64,000 bases of DNA from a virus (Duplodnaviria; Heunggongvirae; Uroviricota; Caudoviricetes): positions 10,545-74,544 of the IMG/VR virus record IMGVR_UViG_3300037264_002389; one strand, written 5' to 3'. The first letter of the stretch is position 1. Every line of letters starts with the position of its first letter. Positions 6,859 to 61,734 of this stretch are shown in pieces. The position numbers and the translations under genes are program-made. The notes beneath the pieces were generated by a model that was not told where the DNA came from, ran no database searches, and saw only the letters and a list, made by a program, of their open reading frames with translations.

Positions 6859-7866
6859 ATGTTATGTTTGTATTTTATCAGAATGCCAGAGCCTGTTGAA
6901 TATATGCCTGAGGCACTGCGTCCGAGACGTAAAATTTCACGTAAATTAGAATATGGTATTGGTATTCCGGATGGCAATTCAAGTTTTGGCATGACTAATG
7001 GTCCAGTTGAGAATCTTCAAGAGATGTTAAATGTTATTCCACATGATGTTAAGTCAGTAATTATTAGGTTTAATGAGGATCAATCTGATGATGTGATTTA
7101 TAAATGGAACCATAATCGTTGGATTCGTGTTGATCCTGATATTGAGCGTTTGAGTAATTTTCATTGGGACCCAAGTAAATTAGATAAATCACAATTCGAG
7201 TCTATTCCATCTATTCCAATAACCGTTAGTGATGTTAAAGGGAAAGAACAATGGCAAGAGCGCGTAATGCGGATGTTATATCAAGTTAGTAATGTGGTGC
7301 GATCTTGTAGCATGTGTTCTTTAGGTAGACAATTGTGTGATGAACACAACACAGTGTTTGATCCACATGTGTTTAGTACAATGAATCCAAGCAGGTTGGT
7401 TGTAGTTGGTCAGAATCCTGGGTTTAATGAATGTTTACAGGGCAGGCCATTTGTCGGCGATGCTGGTAAGTTTTTTGATGAAGCTATTGTGCGGCATGGC
7501 TTATCGAGGAATGATTTTTATATAACTAATCTTGTCAAGTGTTATACTATTGGTAATAATCGACCTACTAAAGAACACATGGTGCGTTGTGAGTCTATAT
7601 TGAGAATGGAAATCACATTACTTAGACCATTATTGGTAATTACACTTGGTTCGGTGGCTTTTGAGGCTTTCTTTCATGGCATGACTTTATCAGAGCATCT
7701 TGGTGATTTAATGAAATCAGATAAATTCGATGTTGAGGTTTATCCAATGTATCATCCGTCACCGAGAAATATGCAAGATTCAGTTCGTCGTGCTAAATTT
7801 ATTGATAATATTAATGACCTTTGTGAATTAATTAAAGCTTATAGATCGAGTGTCTTAAACTCGTGA
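6859..7866 (+). CDS. uracil-DNA glycosylase family 4-like protein (Fe-S type) with a ~150-aa N-terminal extension
   Basis: C-terminal half has CSMCSLGRQLC (cluster cysteines), GQNPGFNE (family-4 GEGPG-like motif), FVGDAGKFFDEA, LVKCYT and a terminal HPSP motif. Confidence 0.6.
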   Translation: MLCLYFIRMPEPVEYMPEALRPRRKISRKLEYGIGIPDGNSSFGMTNGPVENLQEMLNVIPHDVKSVIIRFNEDQSDDVIYKWNHNRWIRVDPDIERLSNFHWDPSKLDKSQFESIPSIPITVSDVKGKEQWQERVMRMLYQVSNVVRSCSMCSLGRQLCDEHNTVFDPHVFSTMNPSRLVVVGQNPGFNECLQGRPFVGDAGKFFDEAIVRHGLSRNDFYITNLVKCYTIGNNRPTKEHMVRCESILRMEITLLRPLLVITLGSVAFEAFFHGMTLSEHLGDLMKSDKFDVEVYPMYHPSPRNMQDSVRRAKFIDNINDLCELIKAYRSSVLNS

Positions 7867-10254: not shown

Positions 10255-10770
10255 ATGCCTGGTTTCATCATTGGTGGTATTGGACAAGGTCCAAATCATG
10301 CTATTGAGACACGGAGAAAGCATCGTTGGTTATTTGAGACTCTTGATGGCGTTGATGACAAAAAAATTTTAACCTATTTAAAAGAAGCAACTAGACCACA
10401 TTTAGTTATAGAACAGTCAGAGGTTTATCATAAACAAGAACGTATTTATTTAGCGGGTAGACATTCTTGGGAACCAATCAAGTTAGTATGGTATGACGTG
10501 GCTGATGAGGTTGATTCATCTGACGCTATTTGGCAATGGGTTAATAAAGTTATCGATTTCTTCAGGGATGTTGGTGTCCCACCACCAGGATCATATAAGA
10601 AAAATGGTCGTTTGATTATGCTGGATGGTGATGGGCGAACTAATGAAAATTGGGAGATATTTAACTGTTGGCCTGCAGAAGTGAACTGGAATGCTGTTGA
10701 TTACGCTGATTCAGAAATACAGACAATTGAAGTTACAATGCGGTACGATAGAGCAGCGAGATTTACCTAA
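10255..10770 (+). CDS. tail tube protein paralog 2 (gp19-like)
   Basis: About 55% identical by eye to paralog 1; a TATAAATA late-promoter-like box lies at 10230-10237. Confidence 0.65.
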   Translation: MPGFIIGGIGQGPNHAIETRRKHRWLFETLDGVDDKKILTYLKEATRPHLVIEQSEVYHKQERIYLAGRHSWEPIKLVWYDVADEVDSSDAIWQWVNKVIDFFRDVGVPPPGSYKKNGRLIMLDGDGRTNENWEIFNCWPAEVNWNAVDYADSEIQTIEVTMRYDRAARFT

Positions 10771-14290: not shown

Positions 14291-15994
14291 ATGCTGGCAC
14301 GTATCGTCGATAACCATTTCATATACTTGGATCAAGTTACACAGGGTATAGAAGAAAGTCTTATTGTTCATTTTAGCATTCGTGATCCACGTGCCTATCG
14401 TATGTCGGGGCCATGGGATGGATGGTATAGACGCTATAACACTAAAGAACAACGGCTTGCATTACCATTTTTAGATGAATTAAAGATTTGTTGTGATATT
14501 AATAATATTCCATTAGAGATTGTTGATGAGAGACCAGCACCCCAATACTCAGCCCCACAGGAAGACCAAATTACTGAAGATCTGGTGCCGAATATTAAAT
14601 TAGAATTATATCAGGTTAGATGTTTAAAAGTGTGTTGTCATGAAGAGATTGGTATTGTATCAGCAGTGACAGGTGCGGGAAAATCAGAGTTGATGTGTGG
14701 ATTGGTTAAAATGTTTCGCTGCCCAACTGTAATCATTACAGAACAAATAGTTGTTTTGGAGCAAATAGTCAAGCGATTAGAGGCACGCAATGTAGTTCAT
14801 AATAATGATGTTGGTATGTTTTGCCATGGTCATATGCCAGATGGGAATCTGGTTATAGTTGGCAGCATACAATCATTAAGTTCTCCACCAAAACCAGAAA
14901 AGAAGAAGATTAAAGTAACCATTAAGCAAGCTATTAAGCGTGTGACTGATTGGGCCAGGAAGCGTGATGAGCACATATTTAATATATTCCCACAAATATT
15001 AGCTGACTCTCTTTGTGATAATCCGTCTGGGGTAATGTGCTTACAAGGGAAATATCTACAATTATTAATTGATTATTGTATTGAACTTGAGTGGGAGCGG
15101 GTACGACATGCCTACTATACTAGGCATCAACATGCAAAACAAATTCAAGACGAAGTCGCCAAATGCGATCTATTGATCGTGGATGAATGTGATCTGGCCT
15201 CAACAACTAATTATTCTAAACTTTTTAAGCGCTATTTTAATGGGCGTAGGCGATTTGGATTTAGTGGAACTCCGTTTGATAAATCGAAGCCAGTTCAGGC
15301 ACTTTTCTTGAAAGAGAATTTGGGCAATGTAATCGCCGAGGCAACGCGTGAGGAAGTCCAGAGTCGGGGTAGGATAATACCCATTAAGATGTTTATGATT
15401 GGAATTGGTGAAGATGGCGATAAGGATGATGCGCGAGCTTATGATATAGCAATGCGCGAGGAGATGATTGAGAGTCATTCGTTTCATCAGTCAGTAGCAA
15501 ATATTGTATCGGCTTTTCCAAAAGATGGTACTTTAATACTTGTCGATACATCTCCAATTGAACCATTGGGTAATGCACTACAAGGAATAATTCCTCACTC
15601 AAAATTTATCTTTGGTGGTACTCCTAAGACGGAGCGTCGTAGATACATACAATTATTTGAGAGTAGACAATTAACTTGTTTGATAGGCAGCAAGATCTTG
15701 AAACGTGGGTTGGATCTGGAAGGTGGTGTCGAGAATCTAATAATAATCGGAGGTGGTGGGCAATGGTCTGATTTTGAACAGAAGGTAGGTCGAGCAGTAC
15801 GGGTGAACAAAAGGGGGTGGACGCGGATCTTCAGTTTCTTCTTCCTGAATAATAAATATTTGTATAAGCATTCCAGGGAGAATCTGAAGGCCATAGTGAG
15901 CATGGGTTATGATGCACGAGTCATCATTGGTGGAACAGAGATCGATGGCAAAGCTTTCGTCAAATCAAGATTCCGCATCACCAAAAATCGATGA
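14291..15994 (+). CDS. SF2 DNA/RNA helicase (DExD-box, possibly UvsW-like)
   Basis: Walker A TGAGKSE, Walker B LIVDECD, and a helicase-C-like LIGSKILKRGLDLEG. Confidence 0.7.
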   Translation: MLARIVDNHFIYLDQVTQGIEESLIVHFSIRDPRAYRMSGPWDGWYRRYNTKEQRLALPFLDELKICCDINNIPLEIVDERPAPQYSAPQEDQITEDLVPNIKLELYQVRCLKVCCHEEIGIVSAVTGAGKSELMCGLVKMFRCPTVIITEQIVVLEQIVKRLEARNVVHNNDVGMFCHGHMPDGNLVIVGSIQSLSSPPKPEKKKIKVTIKQAIKRVTDWARKRDEHIFNIFPQILADSLCDNPSGVMCLQGKYLQLLIDYCIELEWERVRHAYYTRHQHAKQIQDEVAKCDLLIVDECDLASTTNYSKLFKRYFNGRRRFGFSGTPFDKSKPVQALFLKENLGNVIAEATREEVQSRGRIIPIKMFMIGIGEDGDKDDARAYDIAMREEMIESHSFHQSVANIVSAFPKDGTLILVDTSPIEPLGNALQGIIPHSKFIFGGTPKTERRRYIQLFESRQLTCLIGSKILKRGLDLEGGVENLIIIGGGGQWSDFEQKVGRAVRVNKRGWTRIFSFFFLNNKYLYKHSRENLKAIVSMGYDARVIIGGTEIDGKAFVKSRFRITKNR

Positions 15995-19992: not shown

Positions 19993-22914
19993 TTGGAGTC
20001 ACTAATGCCTCTTAAATGGCAATTATGGGATCGAGTCCGCGCTTTTATGCGGCAAGCTCAGATCTACAGAACCGATAATTTATATCAAGACCAAGAGACA
20101 ATCGACAAGATAGTATATGGAGGACAATTTCTTGACTTTAGTAAACAATCGGCTCTATTTGAACAGACCAGTCTACAGATAAATCGTCTGGAGCGCTATA
20201 AAGATTATGACATGATGGACGAAGTAGGTGAAGTCAGTCTAGCACTTGACATGTACGCGGACGAATCAACATTAATTGATCCAGAACGAAAGCACTCAAT
20301 AATAGTAAAAGCCAAGCGTAAGGGTCTCAAGAAAATTGTAGAAGATCTATTATATAACACATTAATGATTGACAGAGAAATTAGACCATTGGTACGTTAC
20401 CTATGCAAATATGGCGACTTTGTATCAGAAATTATACCAACTAAGAACCGCGATGGAGTTGCATCATTCAAATTCATGAACGTCTATAATTTCACACGAG
20501 TTCAAACCAAATATGGTGATCTAGTCGGTTTCTATTACCAAGACGCCGGTCTAGCAGAACCACAATTCTTACACCCATGGCAAGTAATGCACCTAAGACT
20601 TACAAGTTATGAAACTGTGTATCACCCTTACGGGCGATGTAGCGCACTGTGCAGCACAGTGTGCACACCAACTGGTTATAAATTATTGAAAGATATTCAG
20701 AAAGGTGATCAAGTATATTCGTTTGATCTTAAGACACAAAAACCAGTTATTACTACCGTTCTTGATAAGGTCTTAAATGGCAAGAAGAAGACGTTAATTA
20801 TTAAGACTAAACATCGTTCAATTCAAGTTACACCAGAACACCCAATGTTGGCTATTATTAAGAATAATTATATTTGTGAAGAACAATTATGTAGAGGTAC
20901 CGACCGCAATAAGCCACATATTCGTAGGCAACATAAGAGAGATATTAAAACTAAACAGTATGTTTTAGCACAAGATCTGGTCAGAAATGATAAACTTGTA
21001 CTTCCGAAGCTACACAATCCTGGGGTTGATATTCCAATTGAATCATACAAAATTGCACAACAATATGATGGTAAGAGAATGTGCTTCCCGCAATATGTTA
21101 CTGAAAATTTTGCTAGATTGATTGGTTTTTTGATTGGTGATGGTTGGGTCCCAAATGGAGGTAGGACATTATGTTTTGCAGAAGGTGAATATCAAGAATT
21201 AAATAATAAATATATTAGTATTATTAAATTATTTAATTATGAATCAGAACCATATCGGCATATTATCAAGGATAAAAATGGGCAAGAAAAGAAACATGGT
21301 TATTTCACATTTAACTCCATAGAATTAGCTCAGACAATAGTTAATATGGGTCTTGTTGGTCGCTGTTATGAGAAACGTATTCCTAAATGGGTGTTTGTTG
21401 CTAAGGAAGAAATTAAGAAGGCATTTATTGAAGGGTTGGTCGATGCAGATGGTTCAACAAATATTGATGAATGGGATTGTGAGCGATATCAAATTGAATT
21501 AACCTCAGAAGAGTTAGTGAAAGATCTGAAGGTCTTATTAGATCAAATGAATATTAAGTGTGGGAATATTAGCAAGCGTAATCGCTCTGATCCGATTGTT
21601 GTGTTTGATGGTGAAGAATATGAACGTCGTGATTCATGGATTGTGTATTGGTATGATGCTAAGATGCCATCAGGTGATTTAATGCATATGGGTAAGCGTA
21701 GGACGAAGTACGACAATTCATCTGATGACTATCTGGTTGAATCTATCCTATCGATAGAAGACGGTGGCGAGGTTGAAGTTGGTGATATCCAGGTTTCAGA
21801 GCATCACAACTTCGTGGCCGATGGTGTTGTTATCCACAATTCGATGTTAGATGGTGGTCGTAAGGATTTCAAACGTCTTAGACTGATGGAAGATGCCGCG
21901 CTTGTCTACAGGCTGACCCGCGCCCCCGAAAAGCGGATTTTTAGTATTCCAGTTGGTAATATTCCACCTAAGGAAGTGCCACAATATATTGAGTTGCTTG
22001 CTCGTCAGATGAAGAAGCATAAGTTCGTTGATCCTGCTACTGGTCAAGTTAATGAGCGTTATAGTCCACTAATTCAAGATGATGATTTCTGGTTGCCTAA
22101 GAGAGCTGATGGCACCGGCCCAACTATTGATACTTTACCGGGTGCTGAGAACCTTGATCAGATTGCTGATATTGAATATTTCAAGAAGAAGATGGTGGCT
22201 GGATTAAAGATTCCGTTTAATCGGGTTGGTATTGGTGAACCAGCTGAGGCCGATGGACGCTCATTGGCTTCTGTTTCACCTGAGTTTGCCAAGGCGATTC
22301 AATGGGTACAGCGTGAAGTGGTAATGGGTATTAAGAAGATTGTGCTTGTTCATTTGGCACTTCGTGGGCATTCTGTTGACGATCTTAGCAGTTTTGATTT
22401 GTCAATGACCGCCGCAAGTGCGATCGATGAGTTATATCGTATTGAAACATGGAATACTAGATCTGATATTATGAAGAACCTGAAGGAGCTTGGCTTCTTC
22501 CCTGATGAATGGATTGTTGAGCGCTTTACGGATATGTCGCCAGATGAAATTGCGCTTATGAAGAAGCAGAAGGGTGTTATTGCGCCGGATGAAATGAAGG
22601 CTGAAGATGTACAAGATGATGAAACTCGTGATCTAATTCTTGAGTATAATAACTTGCGGCCACACAGAGAATTACAGATTGATAATAGACATGATGTTAT
22701 AATATTTGCACCACAGTTCTATGTTAATGCTAAGGAACTTGATGGTTTGAAGAATAAGGATGGCAAGTATATTGTCGAAAGTAGTGTTGCAGAGGACGAT
22801 GCAACCGCAGTTAAAAAAGAGACGCGTAATTTATTGATGGAGGAAGCTGGTCACAAATCAGTTGAAGTTGATAGTGTTGTTAAGCAAATGGACGATGTTC
22901 CTACAAAAGAATAA
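19993..22914 (+). CDS. portal protein (gp20-like) interrupted by an intein
   Basis: 973 aa; about 580 aa remain without the intein, consistent with T4 gp20 size. Lies directly downstream of terL and upstream of the prohead protease. Confidence 0.8.
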   Translation: MESLMPLKWQLWDRVRAFMRQAQIYRTDNLYQDQETIDKIVYGGQFLDFSKQSALFEQTSLQINRLERYKDYDMMDEVGEVSLALDMYADESTLIDPERKHSIIVKAKRKGLKKIVEDLLYNTLMIDREIRPLVRYLCKYGDFVSEIIPTKNRDGVASFKFMNVYNFTRVQTKYGDLVGFYYQDAGLAEPQFLHPWQVMHLRLTSYETVYHPYGRCSALCSTVCTPTGYKLLKDIQKGDQVYSFDLKTQKPVITTVLDKVLNGKKKTLIIKTKHRSIQVTPEHPMLAIIKNNYICEEQLCRGTDRNKPHIRRQHKRDIKTKQYVLAQDLVRNDKLVLPKLHNPGVDIPIESYKIAQQYDGKRMCFPQYVTENFARLIGFLIGDGWVPNGGRTLCFAEGEYQELNNKYISIIKLFNYESEPYRHIIKDKNGQEKKHGYFTFNSIELAQTIVNMGLVGRCYEKRIPKWVFVAKEEIKKAFIEGLVDADGSTNIDEWDCERYQIELTSEELVKDLKVLLDQMNIKCGNISKRNRSDPIVVFDGEEYERRDSWIVYWYDAKMPSGDLMHMGKRRTKYDNSSDDYLVESILSIEDGGEVEVGDIQVSEHHNFVADGVVIHNSMLDGGRKDFKRLRLMEDAALVYRLTRAPEKRIFSIPVGNIPPKEVPQYIELLARQMKKHKFVDPATGQVNERYSPLIQDDDFWLPKRADGTGPTIDTLPGAENLDQIADIEYFKKKMVAGLKIPFNRVGIGEPAEADGRSLASVSPEFAKAIQWVQREVVMGIKKIVLVHLALRGHSVDDLSSFDLSMTAASAIDELYRIETWNTRSDIMKNLKELGFFPDEWIVERFTDMSPDEIALMKKQKGVIAPDEMKAEDVQDDETRDLILEYNNLRPHRELQIDNRHDVIIFAPQFYVNAKELDGLKNKDGKYIVESSVAEDDATAVKKETRNLLMEEAGHKSVEVDSVVKQMDDVPTKE
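20662..21840 (+). mobile_element. intein with two-motif LAGLIDADG homing endonuclease
   Basis: N-terminal Cys candidates at 20638, 20650 and 20662, so the start is uncertain. LAGLIDADG blocks LIGFLIGDGW and IEGLVDADGS. Ends VVIHN (HN at 21835-21840) followed by Ser at 21841 as the +1 residue. Confidence 0.8.
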
Positions 22915-42745: not shown

Positions 42746-43372
42746 ATGGAAACAATTGATCTATCAAATCAATCAGATTATAATTATGAACCACATGGTT
42801 CATTATATATTAAGCGCGATCCGGATCAATCCTTCATACCAAAATTTGCCAAATCAGGTGATGTTGGACTCGACCTGCCAGTAAAAATCAATATCGATCA
42901 AGCTAAATTCACGCAGAGTGGTGAAGTTAAGGATCGTCTCAGAAATCCAATGCTATATCCTGATGTTAAGGAATTCGTATATCCCAATGGTACGAGTGAT
43001 GATCCAAATCCATTTTTGTTGGTGCCTCCTATGGGATGGGCCGAGATACCAACAGGCATATCGATTAAATTACCAGATGATGCTTGGGGAATGATTAAAA
43101 GTAGATCATCAACCGGATGGAAAAAGCACCTTGAGGTAATTATCGGAACTATTGATACTGGTTATGTGGGCCTATTGGGAACCCTTGTCTATAATCCAAA
43201 TACCTCGCCTGTAAAAGTATATGAATACGATCCTGTGACTGGGAAAGGGGATTGCTTATCGCAGCTTATTCTGATACCTGTATATCCACTTAAGAAGATG
43301 TTCCTAGTCGATAGACTTCCAGTAACGGTGCGTGGCAAAACTGGCTTTGGGAGCACTAGTCTAGGCACATGA
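42746..43372 (+). CDS. dUTPase / dCTP deaminase family protein
   Basis: VGLDLPV (motif 1-like), IPTGISIKLP, GTIDTGYVGLLG (motif 3, G-x-ID-x-GY-x-G); 208 aa. Confidence 0.7.
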   Translation: METIDLSNQSDYNYEPHGSLYIKRDPDQSFIPKFAKSGDVGLDLPVKINIDQAKFTQSGEVKDRLRNPMLYPDVKEFVYPNGTSDDPNPFLLVPPMGWAEIPTGISIKLPDDAWGMIKSRSSTGWKKHLEVIIGTIDTGYVGLLGTLVYNPNTSPVKVYEYDPVTGKGDCLSQLILIPVYPLKKMFLVDRLPVTVRGKTGFGSTSLGT

Positions 43373-43665
43373 CTAAACATATTGTTTTATATGCGGCAAT
43401 TATTGATCATGATGAAGCCGGTATTTTTGTAGATGCTTATTTCTTGGGAGGTGTTGTTGATACACATTCAGCAGCAGAAAAATTAGCATGGAGTTTAACA
43501 AATGACAAGACAATTCCAGGTACCATATTGACCAAGATTTATAAATTCAATAGTCATACTGAATTTGGGCGTGTTCTTGATATGGCTACTAAATATTTTC
43601 ATCAATTAGCTTTGGATATGTATGATACCGAAGATGTCCAGAAGAAGTCTAAGAACAGGGATTAA
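43369..43665 (+). CDS. hypothetical protein
   Basis: 98 aa, overlapping the previous stop. Confidence 0.4.
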   Translation: MTKHIVLYAAIIDHDEAGIFVDAYFLGGVVDTHSAAEKLAWSLTNDKTIPGTILTKIYKFNSHTEFGRVLDMATKYFHQLALDMYDTEDVQKKSKNRD

Positions 43666-43695: not shown

Positions 43696-44625
43696 ATGAG
43701 AGAAGAATTTAAAGAAGTTCGTTTCACGCCAGCATCATCACAGCGCATTGAACAATGTAACTCAATTATTTCAAATTATCAAGCACAGCATCTGCGATTG
43801 ACATTGCGGCAATTGTATTACCAGATGGTTGTACGGAATTGGTTAGTAAATGAAGAGCGATCATATCGACAATTATCTGGCTTGATTTCTGATGCGCGTT
43901 TAGCTGGGCTAGTTGATTGGGATGCTATTGAAGATCGTGTGCGTGTTCCGCGTATTCCAACCGAATTTACAAATTTGCGTGAATTAACCGAAGCCGCACT
44001 ACAATCTTATCGTTTACCACGTTGGGTTGGTCAGAAGCATTATGTTGAGTTATGGGTAGAGAAGGATGCTCTAGCTGGGGTGTTAATACCGTTGGCTAGG
44101 CATTTTCATGTTACCCTAATGGTCAATCGTGGCTATAGTTCCCAATCTGCCATGTATGAGAGCGCAAATCGTTTTAGAGAAAAATCAGCTATATTAGAGG
44201 ACAATAGTAATCTAATCATATTTTATCTTGGCGACCATGATCCATCTGGCGAGGATATGGTTCGTGATATTCGCGATCGTCTGTTTATGTTTGGTATGGA
44301 TATTGATGTCCGTAAAATTGCTTTAACGATGGAACAAATTGAGCATTATAATCCGCCACCAAACCCGACTAAATTGACTGATTCTAGAGCACCAGCCTAT
44401 ATTGCTATGCATGGCAATAATTCATGGGAAGTTGATGCGCTACCGCCTGAGGTATTAACTGGGCTTATTACCAGTGAGCTTAATGCCGTGATTAATAAGA
44501 GAGATATGAATGTGGTGAAGGCTCTTGAGGAAAGAGATAAAAAGAATTTGCGTGTTGTTGTTGAAGGGCTTCTAAATAGTAAGCCCAAGAAGTTAAGTAA
44601 GCCTAGGAAGCCCAAGAAGAAGTGA
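43696..44625 (+). CDS. Topo VI-A / Spo11-like 'mini-A' protein (5Y-CAP plus Toprim)
   Basis: RQLYYQMV (the R-x-x-YY catalytic tyrosine motif of type IIB cleavage subunits); ELWVEKDAL (Toprim Glu, cf. VVEKE); YLGDHDPSGEDM (the DxDPxG Toprim motif of Spo11/Topo VI-A). Spacing Y to E about 80 aa and E to DxD about 60 aa, as in Topo VI-A. Only 309 aa. Confidence 0.6.
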   Translation: MREEFKEVRFTPASSQRIEQCNSIISNYQAQHLRLTLRQLYYQMVVRNWLVNEERSYRQLSGLISDARLAGLVDWDAIEDRVRVPRIPTEFTNLRELTEAALQSYRLPRWVGQKHYVELWVEKDALAGVLIPLARHFHVTLMVNRGYSSQSAMYESANRFREKSAILEDNSNLIIFYLGDHDPSGEDMVRDIRDRLFMFGMDIDVRKIALTMEQIEHYNPPPNPTKLTDSRAPAYIAMHGNNSWEVDALPPEVLTGLITSELNAVINKRDMNVVKALEERDKKNLRVVVEGLLNSKPKKLSKPRKPKKK

Positions 44626-44691
44626 TACTTACTTGACAAGCTTGATTTATGTGGTAAAATATAGATTGGAGATGTTTGATAACGATACTGA

Positions 44692-44768
44692 CGCAGGCGG
44701 CTAGGGCTGGCTGCTCTGGAGAGGCCCATAACCTTTCAACGAGAGTTCGATTCTCTCGCCTGCTACCA
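44692..44768 (+). ncRNA. tRNA-like RNA element, candidate tRNA-like module of a Y RNA
   Basis: Canonical T-arm gagag-TTCGATT-ctctc, 7-bp acceptor-like stem with a 1:72 mismatch, discriminator A plus CCA. Anticodon-like stem-loop agagg-CCCAUAA-ccttt (CAU). No foldable D-arm and no U8 or U33. Lies immediately upstream of a Ro60 gene. Confidence 0.5.
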
Positions 44769-44772
44769 CAAG

Positions 44773-44990
44773 ACAGGGGACTGCGCGTCATTCCAGCTAC
44801 CGATAATGGCAAAATGACTTCGTAAATCCCCCTGTATTATGAGGAGACAATCGAGAGACTGCGCGTCATTCCAGCAACTTCATACGGAGAAGTCAGGTGT
44901 AAACCTGAGCGAAAAAATGACCACGCGATTCCTCTCGATTTTATACCTACTTGGTCGTAAGATTTAGAGACTGCACGTCACTATTGACTG
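44773..44990 (+). repeat. three iterated stem-loop units sharing the core gactgcgcgtcattccagc
   Basis: Core copies at 44779-44797, 44857-44875 and a degenerate 44968-44985. Each is embedded in flanking inverted repeats (acagggga/tcccctgt; tcgagag/ctctcga; tagaga/tctct). Confidence 0.6.
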
Positions 44991-45028
44991 CGATTTCTCT
45001 TTAATTACGAAGTCTAATTACGACAACC

Positions 45029-46624
45029 ATGACGCAAGATACGAAATACGAACGCAATGGAGAAGATATAATGTCAACTACTACCCAAACAAATCAACTA
45101 GCCCACATAGAGCATTTCACGCCGGAACTTAAAGCGCGAATCCCACAGGCTCTATCAGATATGATCGATGTGTCATTCTCGGCAACTAACCGAGCAACGT
45201 TCTATAACTCCAAGCAGGAACAGGAAGCAGCTGTTGAGAAAATTCACAAGGAATTATTTAACCTGGATAGAGGTCTATATGGACTAAGCCTCCTATTACC
45301 GGGAACGAACGACTATGCGAGACAACTTGGCCTAGGGTTTTTGCTTGATAATCCCCGTGGCGGCAAATTGGCTGTGTTAACAGAAGCACAGGAAGCCAAG
45401 CTAGTAACCTACTTGGCCCAATTCATGCCCCCACAGCGATTATTTAAGCTTTATCGCGAGCTACGGCAGAACCGTGTCAATAACTCTAGGACAAGAAAAC
45501 TCATCCTCCGAACCATCCTAGGTTCACGAAGACTTGAATTATGGGCAGTCAAGTACAGATTTAAAATCAGACAGGCACTTAGCCATGCATGGGGCCGCGC
45601 TACAGCACTGGCAATGAAGGCAATCCTATCCAAAGAAGGGAAAGATAGATCTGAGCAGGAAACCAAAGGATTGGAGAGGAATATCACCAAGTACGCAGCA
45701 GAGCCGACCAAGGCACTAGAGTGTGTTAAATTCATTTTCGGAGTAGAGACTGGACTAACCATCCCGATCCTTAAGTCTTATCATGCCGCCAGAACTGATC
45801 TGTCTAAAGGGAAGGATCTACCAGAAGAACAACTCGAATATTTGCGCAACAGGCTCCATCCAACGGTCAGCCGAGCAGAAGTGCTTAAACTCGCCAAGAG
45901 CACTATGTCCGAAGGCAAGAAAATGGCAGTTCAAAGACAGGCTAAAGAAGCCGGTGTCGAAATTAAATTCGATCCATCAGCAGCTGATCCTGTTAGGCTC
46001 TACATTTATGCCTATGAAATGGGCATGACGAATGAAATTTCCAATGAACTAAAAAAGAAGGCAAAGAAAACAGCAGATATGCTACTCACCAAATACGATA
46101 AGATTGGTATTGTGATTGACAACTCTTTATCAATGCGTGGACATGGTACGCAGAAGAACCGCCCAATTGCAGTTGCTCTTGCTACTCGTGATATGCTTGA
46201 GGCGGCATCAGAAAATGCCACCATTGAATATTGTGGGCAAGAAACTAATAAACTGGTTCAGCCGATTGGTGATACTAGTCTGTCATATGCTTTGGTTAAG
46301 GTTCTCAAGAGTGGCAAATTAGATTCAGTGTTCGTCATTACTGATGGATATGAAAATGCTCCCGCTGGGCGTTTCGCTCAGACGGTAGAGGCTGTTAGGA
46401 AAATCGGAATCGTTACGCCGATCTTCCAGATCGCCCCTGTAATGGCTGCTGAGAAGGGCGGTATTCGGCAGATATCATCGCAAGTTCCGGCTATGCCATT
46501 GAATAAGCCGGAAGCGATAAATGTTGTAATCATCAAATCATTGCTTGTTTCTGATGTCGATAAGGCAATCCTAGGGATGGCTAAGTCTCTATTGCCACAA
46601 CTTGGGGAGAATAGCGATGACTGA
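45029..46624 (+). CDS. rsr: Ro60/Rsr orthologue (TROVE domain plus C-terminal vWA with MIDAS)
   Basis: [22 protein letters not shown] vs human Ro60 [36 protein letters not shown] vs MWGRALRKAIADW; vWA [9 protein letters not shown] (DxSxS) vs [17 protein letters not shown] vs [25 protein letters not shown] vs ADVFIVFTDNETFAG; 531 aa. Confidence 0.78.
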   Translation: [531 protein letters not shown]

Positions 46625-47675
46625 ATTGACTATTAGTGAGATTCTACGTGGGTTAGTGCCCGGTAGATTACAATCGGTTGGTTTGATGCAGGTTATTCCG
46701 TTGACCTGCACGGACCCCGATCTATTTGATCAGGATCTAGTGTCGCCGATGCATAATTATGATGCACAGTCTTCGAATGTGCGAGTCACTAGCGGCACGA
46801 CAGGATATGGTGCAATGCAGTTTAAGAATCCGACTGATAAGGTTTTGCTTGTCCCATGCCATGTTGGTTATGTTACCAAACATGCATCGCAGGACCACGC
46901 TATGGCTACTTCTGGTTTAGTCGCAGCAAAGAAGGAGAAGATATTTGAGAACGCGATGTGTATTCAACAGAGGCAAGGTGGCTTGATTCCACTTGAGCAA
47001 CATAAGATGTTAATCCTCCCATACTCTCTACGCGAATGTGCTTTAGCTAAGAGAAGCAGCAATGAATTTAGTAGACTATGGGAAGACATTGATGACTTTA
47101 ATAAGACACTTGGTATTGCCACGCGAGGTGGGCATCTTGAATACTTCATGGATGCTTTTAAAGAAGAGCTAGATCAATTTGTTGCCGAGTTTGAGATTGT
47201 ACCTGGACAGACTGGCGCGATTATCTTGGTTAATGGTTCGGTGGTAGGTGTTGAGCGAGCACCTTCTCCTAAGTTCTGGTCAGAGGTTTGGGATGCTCTG
47301 ATTAGAGAGTGCTATGGTTCGCTGGCTATTGAAGTTAGCCGTAAAACAGGTAATCGTTTACCGCCTCCAAGCACTAGGACTGCGATTGATCTGCAACAGA
47401 TTAATACCCTTGATGATCTGGAAAAGGAATTGCAACGCGCAGATTGCGACGCCGAGGCGAGGGTTAAGACCATAGTGCGCGATCTATTGGAAGATCCGTT
47501 TAAAACCAAGAACGAAGGTGATCTTAATAGATATAATCTCATGACCCTTGAGAATGGTCAATTTAATGGTCAGGTGGTACGAGAGAGCCAGAGGGTTGTT
47601 TATGCCTCTCTGTTCACCACTAAGTCATGGGCTAAGAATGCTCCGTGGATGAAGGCCAGTAAGTTTGCAGTCTAG
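46602..47675 (+). CDS. hypothetical protein co-operonic with the Ro60 gene
   Basis: 357-aa ORF overlapping the rsr stop by 23 nt. Confidence 0.5.
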   Translation: MGRIAMTELTISEILRGLVPGRLQSVGLMQVIPLTCTDPDLFDQDLVSPMHNYDAQSSNVRVTSGTTGYGAMQFKNPTDKVLLVPCHVGYVTKHASQDHAMATSGLVAAKKEKIFENAMCIQQRQGGLIPLEQHKMLILPYSLRECALAKRSSNEFSRLWEDIDDFNKTLGIATRGGHLEYFMDAFKEELDQFVAEFEIVPGQTGAIILVNGSVVGVERAPSPKFWSEVWDALIRECYGSLAIEVSRKTGNRLPPPSTRTAIDLQQINTLDDLEKELQRADCDAEARVKTIVRDLLEDPFKTKNEGDLNRYNLMTLENGQFNGQVVRESQRVVYASLFTTKSWAKNAPWMKASKFAV

Positions 47676-52049: not shown

Positions 52050-52958
52050 ATGGACAAACGACAGCAAAAACTAGAACGAAAACGCAAAAAACGCAACAAG
52101 CTTAGGCAAGAACACCTATGTAAGCGTGGTCTTGAACGGAAAAGCTTACTCCGCGATTACCTAATGCGCGGCCAATATGTCCTACCAAAGCACTGTCTCC
52201 CATCCAAAGACGACATGGACGGCTGGCACGACATTAATGCCATTCGAGACCGTGCCAAAATTATGACTAAAGCTATCGAATTATTCGATACAGACGTCAC
52301 TCTTAAAGAGTATTTGGACGGTCATCTAAACATCCACGACAACCAAAAACGAAAGAAATTAAACGAAATTTTTAGTATCGCTGCACAAGAATTATGTTGC
52401 AAACCACCTTACTTCATACCCCATATGACCATGATAGCTGATGGCAGATATTACGCACCAGCACTAAGCCTCTACCTACTCAAGAAAAAAGGCACAGGAC
52501 CAGGAACCCTCTGGTACGACCTCGAAAACATTCTAGAAATTGATTCCAAACACGTCCTATTCTCAACCCACGCCATAGAGCGCATCATAGCTAGACTGGA
52601 CCTCGTCAAAAACAAATACACGAAAAACACACTGTCTATACTCCTATTCTCGCGTATGAAATTAGGCCCAATGGCAGCAGCTAGAGGCGAACCACTACTA
52701 CAACTATATAATGAACCACTCTATGGCGATACAGAACCATTCGGATACTGCCCAATCTCATATAACAAAGACATCATAGTAGCCACCACCTACCTATTAC
52801 CAGGCATGTCTGGCACCCCAGAAGGAGTAGTCCTCAGAATGGCCGGAGAATATCCAGCAATCAACAACATTAATGATTTAGAGGAGAATAAGGAGAAATT
52901 TGAGAAGGCTGGACTACCGACATTCATTAGTGAGAAGGACGATTCACAAAAGACATGA
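52050..52958 (+). CDS. hypothetical protein
   Basis: 302 aa with a basic N-terminus. Confidence 0.45.
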   Translation: MDKRQQKLERKRKKRNKLRQEHLCKRGLERKSLLRDYLMRGQYVLPKHCLPSKDDMDGWHDINAIRDRAKIMTKAIELFDTDVTLKEYLDGHLNIHDNQKRKKLNEIFSIAAQELCCKPPYFIPHMTMIADGRYYAPALSLYLLKKKGTGPGTLWYDLENILEIDSKHVLFSTHAIERIIARLDLVKNKYTKNTLSILLFSRMKLGPMAAARGEPLLQLYNEPLYGDTEPFGYCPISYNKDIIVATTYLLPGMSGTPEGVVLRMAGEYPAINNINDLEENKEKFEKAGLPTFISEKDDSQKT

Positions 52959-53862
52959 CTCTTTGGGCTTTTCTATCGAGATATAATGTACAGTTTGTGT
53001 ATAATGCTCTTCCTATGAGTAAGGCGTCGTGACCGCACCACCAGGTATTGTAGATTAGTTGTTTTGATATTTTGTTTATTTTAATGGTTTCCTGATATTG
53101 TGTCAATACTAATTTAATGATTTGTGTTTGAACCCACTCTATTATCGGATAATGTCGGCTGCAGAATCCCAATCTTAGATAACGATTTTTATTGTGGGTA
53201 ACAGTTCCATCACCATCCCACAATCCGCGTAAGAAATGTTTCATGTTTAGATTAAGTTTTTCTAATTTGATAATGCCTTGCTTATATTCTGGCCAACCAG
53301 CTTGTTGATAGAATTCATATAATTCTTTATTATTAATAGAGATGTAGGCTCTGTCGAATGTTTTACCAGCGCATCTGACTTGACCTTTCTTTGGTTGGAT
53401 TGTGCTTTTTAATGATCTAGATAATTTATATAAGTGGCCAATATCTTTGTAAGCTAGATTTATTCTAATACGATGTGTAGTTTTTGGCATATACCCGTCA
53501 CTTAGGAAGAAACCAAACCAGTAACTGCCAGTCTCACTTGATAGATCCATAATGTCGGTTAGATCGAGATCATAATGGCGGGCAGCTGTACTTCGGTCTC
53601 GTAGTTCGACATTATGCTTCTTTAACTGCATCGCGACTACTATTGCACTACATCTGAATCTTTTTGCTATGTCATATGTGCTCATGCCTGAATTGTATAA
53701 GGAGGTAGCCAAAGTTGTATTGACCTTCATTGGCGTTGGTGGACGTGGTTTTATTTTGTTTTCTCTGAGTATTTTATATATGGTTTTATCGTTTACATGG
53801 TACTTTCGCGCTAGTTTTCTTATACCAGTCCCAGAAATGTATTCGGTGACGATGTTTATCAA
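52927..53862 (-). CDS. free-standing LAGLIDADG homing endonuclease with N-terminal HTH modules
   Basis: LRGLWDGDG and WFGFFLSDG motifs; two HTH-like segments (IRKLARKYHVNDKTIYKIL; TYDIAKRFRCSAIVVAMQL); minus strand among + genes. Confidence 0.6.
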   Translation of the reverse strand: MINIVTEYISGTGIRKLARKYHVNDKTIYKILRENKIKPRPPTPMKVNTTLATSLYNSGMSTYDIAKRFRCSAIVVAMQLKKHNVELRDRSTAARHYDLDLTDIMDLSSETGSYWFGFFLSDGYMPKTTHRIRINLAYKDIGHLYKLSRSLKSTIQPKKGQVRCAGKTFDRAYISINNKELYEFYQQAGWPEYKQGIIKLEKLNLNMKHFLRGLWDGDGTVTHNKNRYLRLGFCSRHYPIIEWVQTQIIKLVLTQYQETIKINKISKQLIYNTWWCGHDALLIGRALYTNCTLYLDRKAQRVMSFVNRPSH

Positions 53863-59511: not shown

Positions 59512-61734
59512 ATGAGCACTACGGCGATACAAGCTTTGCCCAGGCAAATTATGCAGTTGACCGCTCGTGCGATTGGTCAACAAGCCAGTGAGCGCATAAC
59601 CGACATTAGTTGGTTGTTATTGGAATTGATCACGAATAGCGACGATATTTATGCTGTACTTGGTGTTCAACGCGATGTATGGATCGAAATCATCTATAAG
59701 AAAGAGAATTCGATAATCATTTATAAGGACAATGGAAGTGGTCTTACTTATGAGGAACAGTTACAAAAGTTGAACCGTTATGGTGCGCACACATCGGCTG
59801 AAGGGGTGCGTGGTTTCTTTTCCGTAGGGGCTAAAGACATCATCCCACATGTTAATGATTTCGTTATTGTGTCTTTTAAAGATGGCCAATATTACAGGTC
59901 GAAATATTTTATTGAGTCTAATGGTTCTTATTCGTTATTTCCAGTTGATGACGACAACAATAAGATTCATAATACGGAAGGCAGACCAGCATCTAAAAAG
60001 GATTATGAGAGTTTCGATTTTAAGCCGGGGATGAATGGTTTAATTTTCATCCTAGATGGAATCCGCCTAAATTTGCCACGTTATAAGAATCTATGCGCTT
60101 TGTTATCAGAACTTCCGCAATTGCGTTTAATTATGATGAATCGGTCTAGTCATGGTATTAAAAAGATAGTTGTTAGTTGTCGTGATGAGTCACAAGAATT
60201 GAATTATGAGGAACCTAAAGGTGAATTGTTATTTAGTAGGGTTATTACTAGTAATATCATGAAGGACGCTAAGATTAAGTTAGTTGTGTTTCAATCCCAT
60301 AAGCCATTGATTGACGGCGACTATTATCCACGGAATGGTTTTATTGTCACGGCAGGTCGCATGGCAATAGAACATACATATTTTGATCACGCGTTTAAGA
60401 ATTGTCAAGCTACGCAATATGTCTATGGCGAATTACGTATTCCATATGATTTAGTTAGGGGTTTGTTGGTCGAGTATGATGTTATTGAGCGAGAAAAGAG
60501 TAAGCGTCCAATACACAATGATCGGTGTCTATTAAGGCCGACCAGAAAAGAAGGGCTTGATAAGAACCACCCATTTGTAAAAGATTTATTTGAACAAGTT
60601 CGATTGATTCTCATGGATGAAGTGGTTGGTGAACAGGGTGATGGTGAATTGCCTAAGGAGTTTATTGACGAGTTTATGCGTCTTGCGATGGAAGAATGTC
60701 AGGATGAGGGCGACGAGGAAGATGGTGAATATGACGACGATTTTCTAACCAAAGCCCTTGGACAAGATGGTGTCTATATTATGCCACAAAATATTAAGAT
60801 GTTTAAGGATAGTGTGCGCCGGTTGTCTATTTATGTGAATAATGATCTAATCACAGATAAGAAAGATCAGAAAGTAATCAAATTGGAGATGGAGCAGGAT
60901 AAGAATTTGATTATCGCCAAGCGGCGACCAAATGATCCCACGCGTGGTCCGAGGGAGATGACACAAAAGATTAATCTTCCGGTGCGCCAAATGGGCAAAC
61001 GGTTTGGTGCTCAGGTTGATATTATTAGTAGATCACTTATTGGGACGACAAAATTAACTGCGAGTTTTGAAGATGCTTATAAGAATGAGACAACAGTTGA
61101 AATAGACAATTATAAAGTAATTGGATTAATGCAGTTCTTTCGTCCTCAATTTAGTGTGAAAGTTGGCCATGGCAAACGAATATCGCTGGATATTAATGCT
61201 GACGAACTTGATTTGAAACAGATTAAGCAAGTTAAGCTCTCAATGGAACCGAAGGGTCTAGTAACTATTGAGCATGGTGGGAAACCAGTCTATAATGATG
61301 TCAAGAAGTGTTATGAATATTGGGTGTCTGTTACGGCTAAGGCTGTAGGTAAGGTAAACCTAACGGCTGAGTTACAATATGGTCTAATGAAGAGGAAGGG
61401 TGAATCAACTAAGAAAGCACAGGTTGAGTGTGCGGTTAATGTTTATCCTGCGCAACAAGTTACACCAGCTAAAATTGAGATCGATAAGAGTGAAACGTCG
61501 AGCATGTTTGAATGGGTGCCAAATACTAAGATTCCGACATTGAAGGTTTATATTGGCAACAAGTCTGTCAAAAAAATAATTAATGATCCGGTGTTGTATA
61601 AGAATCTGATTATTCTACCAGCATTCGCGTCGAGGAATGCAATTAAGACGATTGGTAAGGTGGAAGGGGTTGAAGAGTATAGTCATGAGTATCAGGCTGA
61701 GATGACTAGGTTTCTGCGAAGAGGTCTAAAATGA
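59512..61734 (+). CDS. GHKL-superfamily ATPase (Bergerat fold; Hsp90/MORC/MutL/Topo VI-B-like N-terminal domain) with a ~540-aa C-terminal extension
   Basis: N-box ELITNSDDIY (ExxxNSxDA), G1 box IYKDNGSGLT, G2-like EGVRGFFSVGAKD; 740 aa. Confidence 0.6.
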   Translation: MSTTAIQALPRQIMQLTARAIGQQASERITDISWLLLELITNSDDIYAVLGVQRDVWIEIIYKKENSIIIYKDNGSGLTYEEQLQKLNRYGAHTSAEGVRGFFSVGAKDIIPHVNDFVIVSFKDGQYYRSKYFIESNGSYSLFPVDDDNNKIHNTEGRPASKKDYESFDFKPGMNGLIFILDGIRLNLPRYKNLCALLSELPQLRLIMMNRSSHGIKKIVVSCRDESQELNYEEPKGELLFSRVITSNIMKDAKIKLVVFQSHKPLIDGDYYPRNGFIVTAGRMAIEHTYFDHAFKNCQATQYVYGELRIPYDLVRGLLVEYDVIEREKSKRPIHNDRCLLRPTRKEGLDKNHPFVKDLFEQVRLILMDEVVGEQGDGELPKEFIDEFMRLAMEECQDEGDEEDGEYDDDFLTKALGQDGVYIMPQNIKMFKDSVRRLSIYVNNDLITDKKDQKVIKLEMEQDKNLIIAKRRPNDPTRGPREMTQKINLPVRQMGKRFGAQVDIISRSLIGTTKLTASFEDAYKNETTVEIDNYKVIGLMQFFRPQFSVKVGHGKRISLDINADELDLKQIKQVKLSMEPKGLVTIEHGGKPVYNDVKKCYEYWVSVTAKAVGKVNLTAELQYGLMKRKGESTKKAQVECAVNVYPAQQVTPAKIEIDKSETSSMFEWVPNTKIPTLKVYIGNKSVKKIINDPVLYKNLIILPAFASRNAIKTIGKVEGVEEYSHEYQAEMTRFLRRGLK

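Follow-up and report, generated by a model that had tools for sequence, protein, structure and literature searches.

A Mini-A gene of the type IIB topoisomerase A-like family in a T4-like myovirus

What kind of protein is encoded by a viral gene whose product resembles a type IIB topoisomerase's A subunit and has no B subunit gene at its side, and what might it do for the virus? This question is raised by a gene at positions 43696 to 44625 of a 64,000-nucleotide stretch of viral DNA (IMG/VR record IMGVR_UViG_3300037264_002389, positions 10,545 to 74,544 of that record). We refer to the whole stretch as the window and count positions from its first nucleotide. An original prediction, made from the sequence of the window, had described the gene product as a stand-alone Spo11/Topo VI-A-like 'mini-A'. 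We found that the gene encodes a Mini-A protein and that its family identity is clear: homology to named members of the family and the signature box both agree with that description. With a probability of roughly 0.85, we read this Mini-A, which combines a truncated 5Y-CAP domain (Arg38, Tyr42), a Toprim domain (Glu122, Asp180, Asp182) and the box SWEVDAL, as a Topo VI-A-like DNA-breaking protein that would serve phage replication or recombination.

Family membership and conserved motifs of Mini-A

Mini-A is a published subfamily of type IIB topoisomerase A-like proteins, described from 23 sequences (Takahashi et al., 2019; PMC7671362). Its members have about 300 residues, consist of only a 5Y-CAP and a Toprim domain and are confined to viruses and proviruses. 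They carry an RxxY/FY motif, a glutamate plus DxDxxG, and a C-terminal T2BI box of their own, xWELDAL, and no gene for a Bergerat fold lies near the published Mini-A genes (PMC7671362). The exemplar in the published alignment comes from Pseudomonas phage NP1 and another from a Listeria monocytogenes prophage; in the accompanying phylogeny, Mini-A forms a clade of its own, apart from both Topo VI and Topo VIII (PMC7671362).

All of these sequence-level features recur in the window protein, namely the length, RxxYY, the glutamate with DxDxxG, the T2BI box, the viral location and the absence of a B subunit gene nearby. With the Mini-A exemplars it shares a size of about 300 residues, a truncated 5Y-CAP followed by Toprim, RxxYY, E plus DxDPxG, WE(L/V)DAL and a virus as its source. 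Its differences from them are minor: Val takes the place of Leu at position 246, and there is a Lys/Pro-rich C-terminal tail.

Sequence searches placed the protein firmly in this family. In PHROGs it gave a full-length match to phrog_6247, 'DNA topoisomerase' (E = 4.2e-89, residues 1–290). By tblastn it was 42.6% identical to the protein of Pseudomonas phage NP1 (NC_031058; E = 3e-62) and 48.3% identical to that of Listeria phage LWP01 (E = 4e-75), and the same search located Mini-A in 79 cultured-phage records at 28–48% identity. The carriers include the NP1/PaMx25/JG054 group of Pseudomonas phages, phages of Xylella, Xanthomonas and Stenotrophomonas, the Roseobacter RDJL phages, Salmonella phages such as SPN19, phages of Brevundimonas, Microbacterium and Bacteroides, and the archaeal virus HCIV-1; in many of these records the gene is annotated 'DNA topoisomerase'.

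The family is also very large. Among the matches listed by a word-indexed search were over 7,990 clusters defined at 90% identity. When 1.84 billion representatives were scanned exhaustively with HMMER, at least 7,685 of the 50%-identity clusters matched with E ≤ 1e-3, and for 1,138 of these E was ≤ 1e-30. HMMER-level searches with Mini-A returned only proteins of Mini-A length. The window gene is an ordinary copy of a very common family described in 2019, and the family is not new. The identity proposed for this orphan mini-A stands; the novelty attached to it was overstated, given how abundant the family is and when it was described.

The features of the gene and its product are listed below. 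Conservation, here and throughout, was counted over 101 diverse representatives of the family, one per 50%-identity cluster.

43696..44625, plus strand: Mini-A coding sequence, 309 amino acids plus stop (ATG at 43696, TGA at 44623-44625)
43696..44031, plus strand: N-terminal winged-helix domain, a truncated 5Y-CAP, residues 1-112
43807..43821, plus strand: RQLYY, residues 38-42, with the conserved Arg38 and the presumed catalytic Tyr42; aligned by hhalign to R-E-a-Y-Y of Top6A
44032..44445, plus strand: Toprim domain, residues 113-250
44053..44067, plus strand: WVEKD, residues 120-124, with the Toprim metal-binding Glu122; aligns to the Glu of Top6A IET/VEK
44125..44160, plus strand: NRGYSSQSAMYE, a family-conserved motif (G146 and S149 each 101/101)
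44233..44250, plus strand: DHDPSG, residues 180-185, the Toprim DxDxxG acidic cluster; aligns to D-G-D-P-Y-G of Top6A
44353..44388, plus strand: PPPNPTKLTDSR, a conserved motif past the Toprim core (K226 99/101, D229 100/101, R231 101/101)
44422..44442, plus strand: SWEVDAL, residues 243-249, the Mini-A-type T2BI box (compare the xWELDAL signature)
44446..44622, plus strand: C-terminal helical extension, residues 251-294, and the Lys/Pro-rich basic tail SKPKKLSKPRKPKKK, residues 295-309

RxxYY, WVEKD and DHDPSG thus lie in the 309-residue open reading frame where the original prediction had located them. In alignments, homologs (consensus MKExFK) begin where the window protein (MREEFKEV...) does, from which we conclude that the start codon is correctly placed. 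The opposite strand contains no open frame across the gene and is interrupted by stops throughout.

The two-domain fold is accompanied by intact, near-invariant catalytic residues. Arg38 and Tyr42 were each found in 100 of the 101 representatives, with Y, F or H at position 41, while Glu122 and Lys123 were each present in all 101. The acidic cluster was equally constant (D180, P183 and G185 101/101; D182 100/101). Conservation continued into the T2BI box (W244 95/101, E245 100/101, D247 95/101, A248 99/101); at position 246 within it, 62 representatives have Leu and 35 have Val, the residue of the window protein. Overall, about 40 residues are near-invariant in the family (≥93% conserved). Beyond the box, the AlphaFold2 (AF2) model contains helices at residues 251–265 and 268–294. 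The tail that follows (residues 295–309) falls outside the phrog_6247 match and varies between homologs; for this basic segment we infer a DNA-binding role.

Further information on the conserved motifs came from four Mini-A homologs that reach 533–694 amino acids owing to insertions. In two of them (P0248 and P0377), inteins with Hint and LAGLIDADG domains sit directly before the Toprim glutamate (ELW|intein|EKDAL, residues 120/121 of the window protein). A third (P0254) has a LAGLIDADG-containing insertion in PPNPTKL|...|SDSR, at about residues 227/228 of the window protein, and the fourth (P0241) has an intein-like insertion without a Pfam match in NRGY|...|SSQSAMYE, between Y147 and S148. 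Inteins typically occupy functional sites of replication enzymes. All three insertion sites fall in invariant motifs, which fits these motifs being functionally critical. Another homolog (P0298) carries an N-terminal DUF1643 fusion.

Relationship to Topo VI-A and Spo11

The 5Y-CAP-like and Toprim halves of the model were compared separately with known structures, and Top6A was the best structural match for each. When the N-terminal domain was modelled alone, Top6A again ranked first, and the winged helix was most like the Top6A CAP domain. Among the structural matches, Top6A of M. jannaschii (1D3Y) scored 10.4, followed by Top6A entry 2ZBK (9.7), MksG (8B7F; 9.5), Top6A entry 2Q2E (9.4), a small Toprim protein (2I5R; 9.1) and yeast Spo11 (8URU; 8.7); DnaG primases and GyrB reached about 7 in the same comparison. 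The top matches aligned only about 140 residues, roughly the length of the Toprim half. This comparison with Topo VI-A and Spo11, proposed in the original prediction as a check, ranks Top6A first for both halves. In place of a Toprim family lacking a 5Y-CAP domain, which had been named there as the contrary outcome, the N-terminal half is modelled as a winged helix like that of the Top6A CAP domain.

The two families were also aligned as profiles with hhalign, with 101 diverse sequences representing Mini-A and 88 representing Top6A/Spo11, the latter comprising deposited PDB sequences and 84 full-length database Top6A proteins that carry PF04406, PF20768 and PF21180. The alignment had an E-value of 8.2e-5 and a probability of 61%, with a confident core in the DxDPxG region (residues 155–229). 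At a permissive posterior threshold, a single collinear alignment spanned all three motifs, pairing LTLRQLYYQ with aTkREaYYvS, WVEKD with aIETa and GDHDPSG with tDgDPYG. With shallow profiles (effective sequence number, Neff, of about 2), the Toprim motifs alone were aligned and the probability was 2.6%.

The predicted fold, together with the catalytic residues read from the sequence, supports a Topo VI-A/Spo11-like protein. With Top6A (1D3Y, 2ZBK and 2Q2E) and Spo11 (8URU), Mini-A shares the collinear order of Arg/Tyr, Glu and DxD, and presumably the chemistry of a 5'-phosphotyrosyl intermediate formed with Mg2+. The spacing expected from type IIB A subunits is approximately reproduced, at 80 residues from Tyr to Glu and 58 from Glu to Asp in Mini-A versus 94 and 52 in M. 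jannaschii Top6A (1D3Y). The catalytic tyrosine comes at position 42 in Mini-A and at position 106 in Top6A of M. mazei (numbering of the 2Q2E chain), so about 60 N-terminal residues are missing from Mini-A, as the original prediction had noticed in broader terms. In the hhalign alignment, residue 1 of Mini-A accordingly pairs with a position inside the Top6A sequence.

Mini-A nevertheless differs from Top6A in several respects. The absent N-terminal segment is the Top6B-binding part of Top6A, and there is no B subunit. Identity in structural alignments is 10–15%, and the T2BI box reads WE(L/V)DAL in Mini-A as opposed to R/KxExxA/S in Top6A. Genuine Top6A carries PF04406, PF20768 and PF21180, whereas PF04406 and PF21180 went undetected in Mini-A. 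Mini-A is too divergent for the Top6A Pfam models and fits the separate published clade (PMC7671362). We therefore did not assign the protein to Topo VI-A/Spo11 proper, for which the TP6A_N and TOPRIM_C matches, an adjacent gene for a GHKL/transducer protein and the N-terminal ~60 residues are all absent.

Topoisomerase VIII was considered as well. Like Mini-A, it has an A-like part without the first half of 5Y-CAP and is borne by mobile elements (PMC7671362). In this plasmid-borne enzyme, in which B and A are fused, a Bergerat ATPase, H2TH and transducer occur in the same polypeptide or an adjacent gene, and none of these accompanies the window gene. Topo VIII also has an RVELNAM box and a conserved Arg three residues past the catalytic Tyr, in contrast to SWEVDAL and Val45 here. 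With its 309 residues, its lack of an ATPase part and its SWEVDAL box, the window protein was rejected as a Topo VIII.

Several results weigh against the reading of Mini-A as a Topo VI-A-like DNA breaker of phage replication or recombination. No Pfam family, including TP6A_N (PF04406) and TOPRIM_C (PF21180), matched Mini-A even at E = 10. Searches of NCBIfam and of PDB sequences with the single protein gave no match, and a profile of 30 Mini-A sequences searched against the PDB gave spurious matches only (E = 0.19 and 1.6). Foldseek against the PDB returned nothing significant. Because of the misses in the Pfam, NCBIfam and PDB sequence searches, the link to Top6A rests on structure prediction and a modest profile score, and most of the hhalign score is contributed by the Toprim half. 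The biological role, in turn, is weakly constrained because no neighbouring gene is constant across phages. The literature reports no biochemical activity for any Mini-A, and reviews up to December 2024 describe the role as unexplored; we found no functional work on Mini-A published after 2020.

Gene neighbourhood and host phage

Immediately 5' of Mini-A, on the same strand, lie a dUTPase gene and then an open reading frame of 98 amino acids; the sequence downstream holds an intergenic region and a pair of protein genes. These features, with a helicase gene encoded elsewhere in the window, are as follows.

42746-43372, plus strand: dUTPase
43369-43665, plus strand: 98-residue open reading frame between the dUTPase gene and Mini-A
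44633-44660, 3' of Mini-A: near-consensus sigma-70-type promoter (TTGACA, 16 nucleotides, TG-n-TAAAAT)
44695-44768: tRNA-Met(CAT) with an encoded CCA end, found by ARAGORN
44778-44797 and 44856-44875: 20-nucleotide direct repeat AGACTGCGCGTCATTCCAGC, none expected by chance; degenerate third copy near 44957
45029-46624, plus strand: vWA-like protein of 531 amino acids, a weak vWA match
46602-47675, plus strand: ARPP-1/ARPP-2 domain protein (PF20208, E = 7e-33), overlapping the vWA-like frame
14291-15994: helicase, a replication protein of the window

No GHKL gene is found among the genes adjoining Mini-A (dUTPase, the 98-residue frame, tRNA-Met, the vWA-like gene and ARPP-1). This agrees with the claim that no B subunit is encoded beside it; the neighbours are of other kinds. 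The promoter, the tRNA-Met gene and the direct repeat occupy the intergenic region of about 400 nucleotides that follows Mini-A (44633-45028). A search of that region against Rfam gave a sole match, which was weak, tRNA-like and overlapped the ARAGORN tRNA. The vWA-like and ARPP genes (45029-47675), just downstream of tRNA-Met, are kept as a pair in two further assemblies of this phage.

The host element is a T4-like myovirus, with window genes for the major head protein (gp23-like), the portal (Portal_T4), the large terminase (gp17-like), the baseplate hub and the tail sheath. A megablast search with 12 kb around Mini-A against the phage collection gave no match, and hence this phage has no close cultured relative. 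The contig recorded for an identical Mini-A protein measures up to 129 kb, and the genes are arranged alike in two other sequencing runs. In being a large T4-like myovirus, the host differs from cultured Mini-A carriers, whose named genera are Nipunavirus, Sanovirus and Xiamenvirus, which we take to be siphoviruses.

In seven other phages, Mini-A is located in a module of early, replication or nucleotide-metabolism genes, where genes for DNA polymerase, ligase, ThyX, dut, a RecA-like ATPase, a RecB-like exonuclease, primase, ribonucleotide reductase and methyltransferase are among its neighbours. Across these seven phages we found no constant Mini-A neighbour and no adjoining GHKL gene. A homolog with 62% identity, on contigs of 73–199 kb, likewise has no neighbours in common with the window Mini-A.

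Some further observations concern the host phage and other carriers. A protein of 335 amino acids (6859-7866, plus strand) has a C-terminal domain of the uracil-DNA glycosylase superfamily (PF03167, E = 2e-32); together with the dUTPase at 42746-43372, it suggests that the phage polices uracil in its own DNA. An intein that includes a LAGLIDADG homing endonuclease lies within the 973-residue Portal_T4 (gp20-like) protein (19993-22914, plus strand), where Hint and Intein_splicing match at about residues 214–616. On the minus strand, opposite to most genes, positions 52927-53862 encode a LAGLIDADG homing endonuclease that is free-standing and has HTH domains at its N-terminus. Genes linked to DNA hypermodification are encountered in several Mini-A carriers: Pseudanabaena phage Pam3 has aGPT-Pplase1 and aGPT-Pplase2, and Pseudomonas phage JG054 belongs to the Queuovirinae, a 7-deazaguanine-associated subfamily.

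Proposed activity, alternative explanations and significance

Catalysis has probably been retained, as judged from the sequence, because R38, Y42, E122, D180 and D182 are kept in 100–101 of the 101 representatives and because insertions occur inside the motifs. By homology with Topo VI-A and Spo11, Mini-A would form a homodimer with hybrid active sites, in which Tyr42 of one protomer is combined with the Toprim Mg2+ site (E122/D180/D182) of the other. Tyr42 would attack the DNA backbone to form a 5'-phosphotyrosyl link, and the dimer would break or nick duplex DNA. In the apo state the T2BI box probably covers the tyrosine, as described for 1D3Y. Lacking an ATPase gate, Mini-A would not be expected to carry out strand passage driven by ATP. 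The outcome may instead be the formation of breaks or nicks in the manner of Spo11, or an ATP-independent cycle of cleaving and rejoining. Mouse SPO11 alone makes covalent double-strand breaks in vitro, partner-free (PMC11922746); an A-type subunit can therefore cleave without a B subunit. Gene context points to a role in phage DNA replication or recombination, where Mini-A may provide ends or nicks to start or restart replication, or resolve replication intermediates.

In a different account, a type IIB topoisomerase would be split between two genes, with Mini-A as its A half. The original prediction had pointed to a GHKL ATPase some distance away, the relevant feature being the following.

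59512-61734, plus strand: GHKL-like open reading frame of 740 amino acids, 15 kb downstream of Mini-A and the only GHKL-like frame in the window

As a non-canonical 'Mini-B', this non-adjacent protein would supply the missing half, and Takahashi et al. leave room for an undiscovered non-canonical B-subunit (PMC7671362). Bergerat-type N, G1 and G2-like motifs can be recognised in it by eye (ELITNSDD, DNGSGL and GFFSVGAKD), and one distant relative carries PF13589 (HATPase_c_3). Its description as a GHKL ATPase is consequently plausible, although weakly supported: the best match to Pfam HATPase_c and HATPase_c_3 was sub-threshold (E = 0.11), the transducer domain Topo-VIb_trans was not matched even at E = 10, and PDB, PHROGs and PADLOC searches gave nothing. 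The distributions of the two proteins also disagree. For the 740-residue protein, a set of 5.8 billion proteins yielded 15 relatives and 50,697 phage records yielded no match, compared with at least 7,685 clusters and 79 phage records for Mini-A. Its relatives occur in unrelated contexts, one of them on a 4.3-Mb Candidatus Palauibacter chromosome near HicB, DUF488 and HD-domain genes. By tblastn, none of 12 Mini-A loci had a GHKL relative within about 5–10 kb, and none of four GHKL loci had Mini-A. With so few relatives and no co-occurrence, the 740-residue protein is not a general Mini-A partner; we rejected it as a general 'Mini-B', and its relevance had been overstated. The split-topoisomerase account as such is highly improbable. 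The same holds for a partnership confined to this phage lineage, to which we give very little credence; in a close relative of the phage, the GHKL-like protein is 76% identical and Mini-A 83% identical.

The remaining alternatives concern what Mini-A does by itself. It might be a JetD/MksG-like hydrolytic Toprim nuclease, a Wadjet-type effector or its phage mimic, that acts by metal-dependent cleavage with no covalent tyrosine intermediate. The R-x-x-Y-Y motif, however, is essentially invariant (100/101) and aligned to the catalytic Tyr of Top6A; to our knowledge, JetD and MksG are without such a catalytic tyrosine. Mini-A also differs from them in being viral and in having no SMC or kleisin partner genes: Pfam, PHROGs and PADLOC revealed no SMC, kleisin or JetABC among the surrounding genes examined. 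No model in PADLOC, a library of known defence systems, matches Mini-A, and the gene lies in a phage replication/nucleotide module as opposed to a host defence island. We accordingly regard a JetD/MksG-like nuclease as very unlikely. Toprim proteins of the OLD family, Gabija or DnaG-primase type were rejected in view of the CAP-like winged-helix N-terminus and the absence of a PADLOC OLD/Gabija match; PADLOC returned no match for Mini-A, the GHKL-like protein or eight other open reading frames of the window. A non-catalytic DNA-binding or structural protein would accord with the winged-helix domain and the basic C-terminal tail, and several actinobacteriophage records, from Microbacterium and Curtobacterium phages, label their homologs 'DNA binding protein'. 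Yet the near-perfect conservation of Tyr, Arg, Glu and Asp-x-Asp would be hard to explain without catalysis, and inteins are inserted at the catalytic motifs of homologs, so there is only a slim chance that this explanation holds. By analogy with HUH endonucleases, Mini-A could finally be a replication initiator, whose site-specific nick or cut primes rolling-circle or recombination-dependent replication. A study of Asgard skuldviruses, which have no other recognisable replication protein, proposed this role for their Topo mini-A (10.1101/2021.07.29.453957), and in the cultured phages examined Mini-A is always in the early/replication module. The published hypothesis is without experimental support, most Mini-A phages have replication proteins of their own, including the helicase at 14291-15994 in the window, and neither a conserved target sequence nor a repeat resembling an origin was identified beside Mini-A. 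We consider the initiator role unlikely, though within reach; it is a narrower version of the best explanation and not an alternative to it.

As a Topo VI-A-like DNA breaker of phage replication or recombination, the window Mini-A adds little on its own, being one of many thousands of such genes. The interest lies in the function of the family as a whole and not in this copy. What the analysis yields for work at the bench are by-products: the size of the family, the list of near-invariant residues and the insertions at three conserved motifs. Among the natural forms of the Topo VI-A/Spo11 DNA-breaking module, Mini-A is the simplest, and it is very abundant in phages and archaeal viruses. As a small, soluble and partner-free relative of Spo11, it is a possible model for the formation and control of type IIB double-strand breaks, and it could lead to an uncharacterised step in the replication or recombination of phage DNA.

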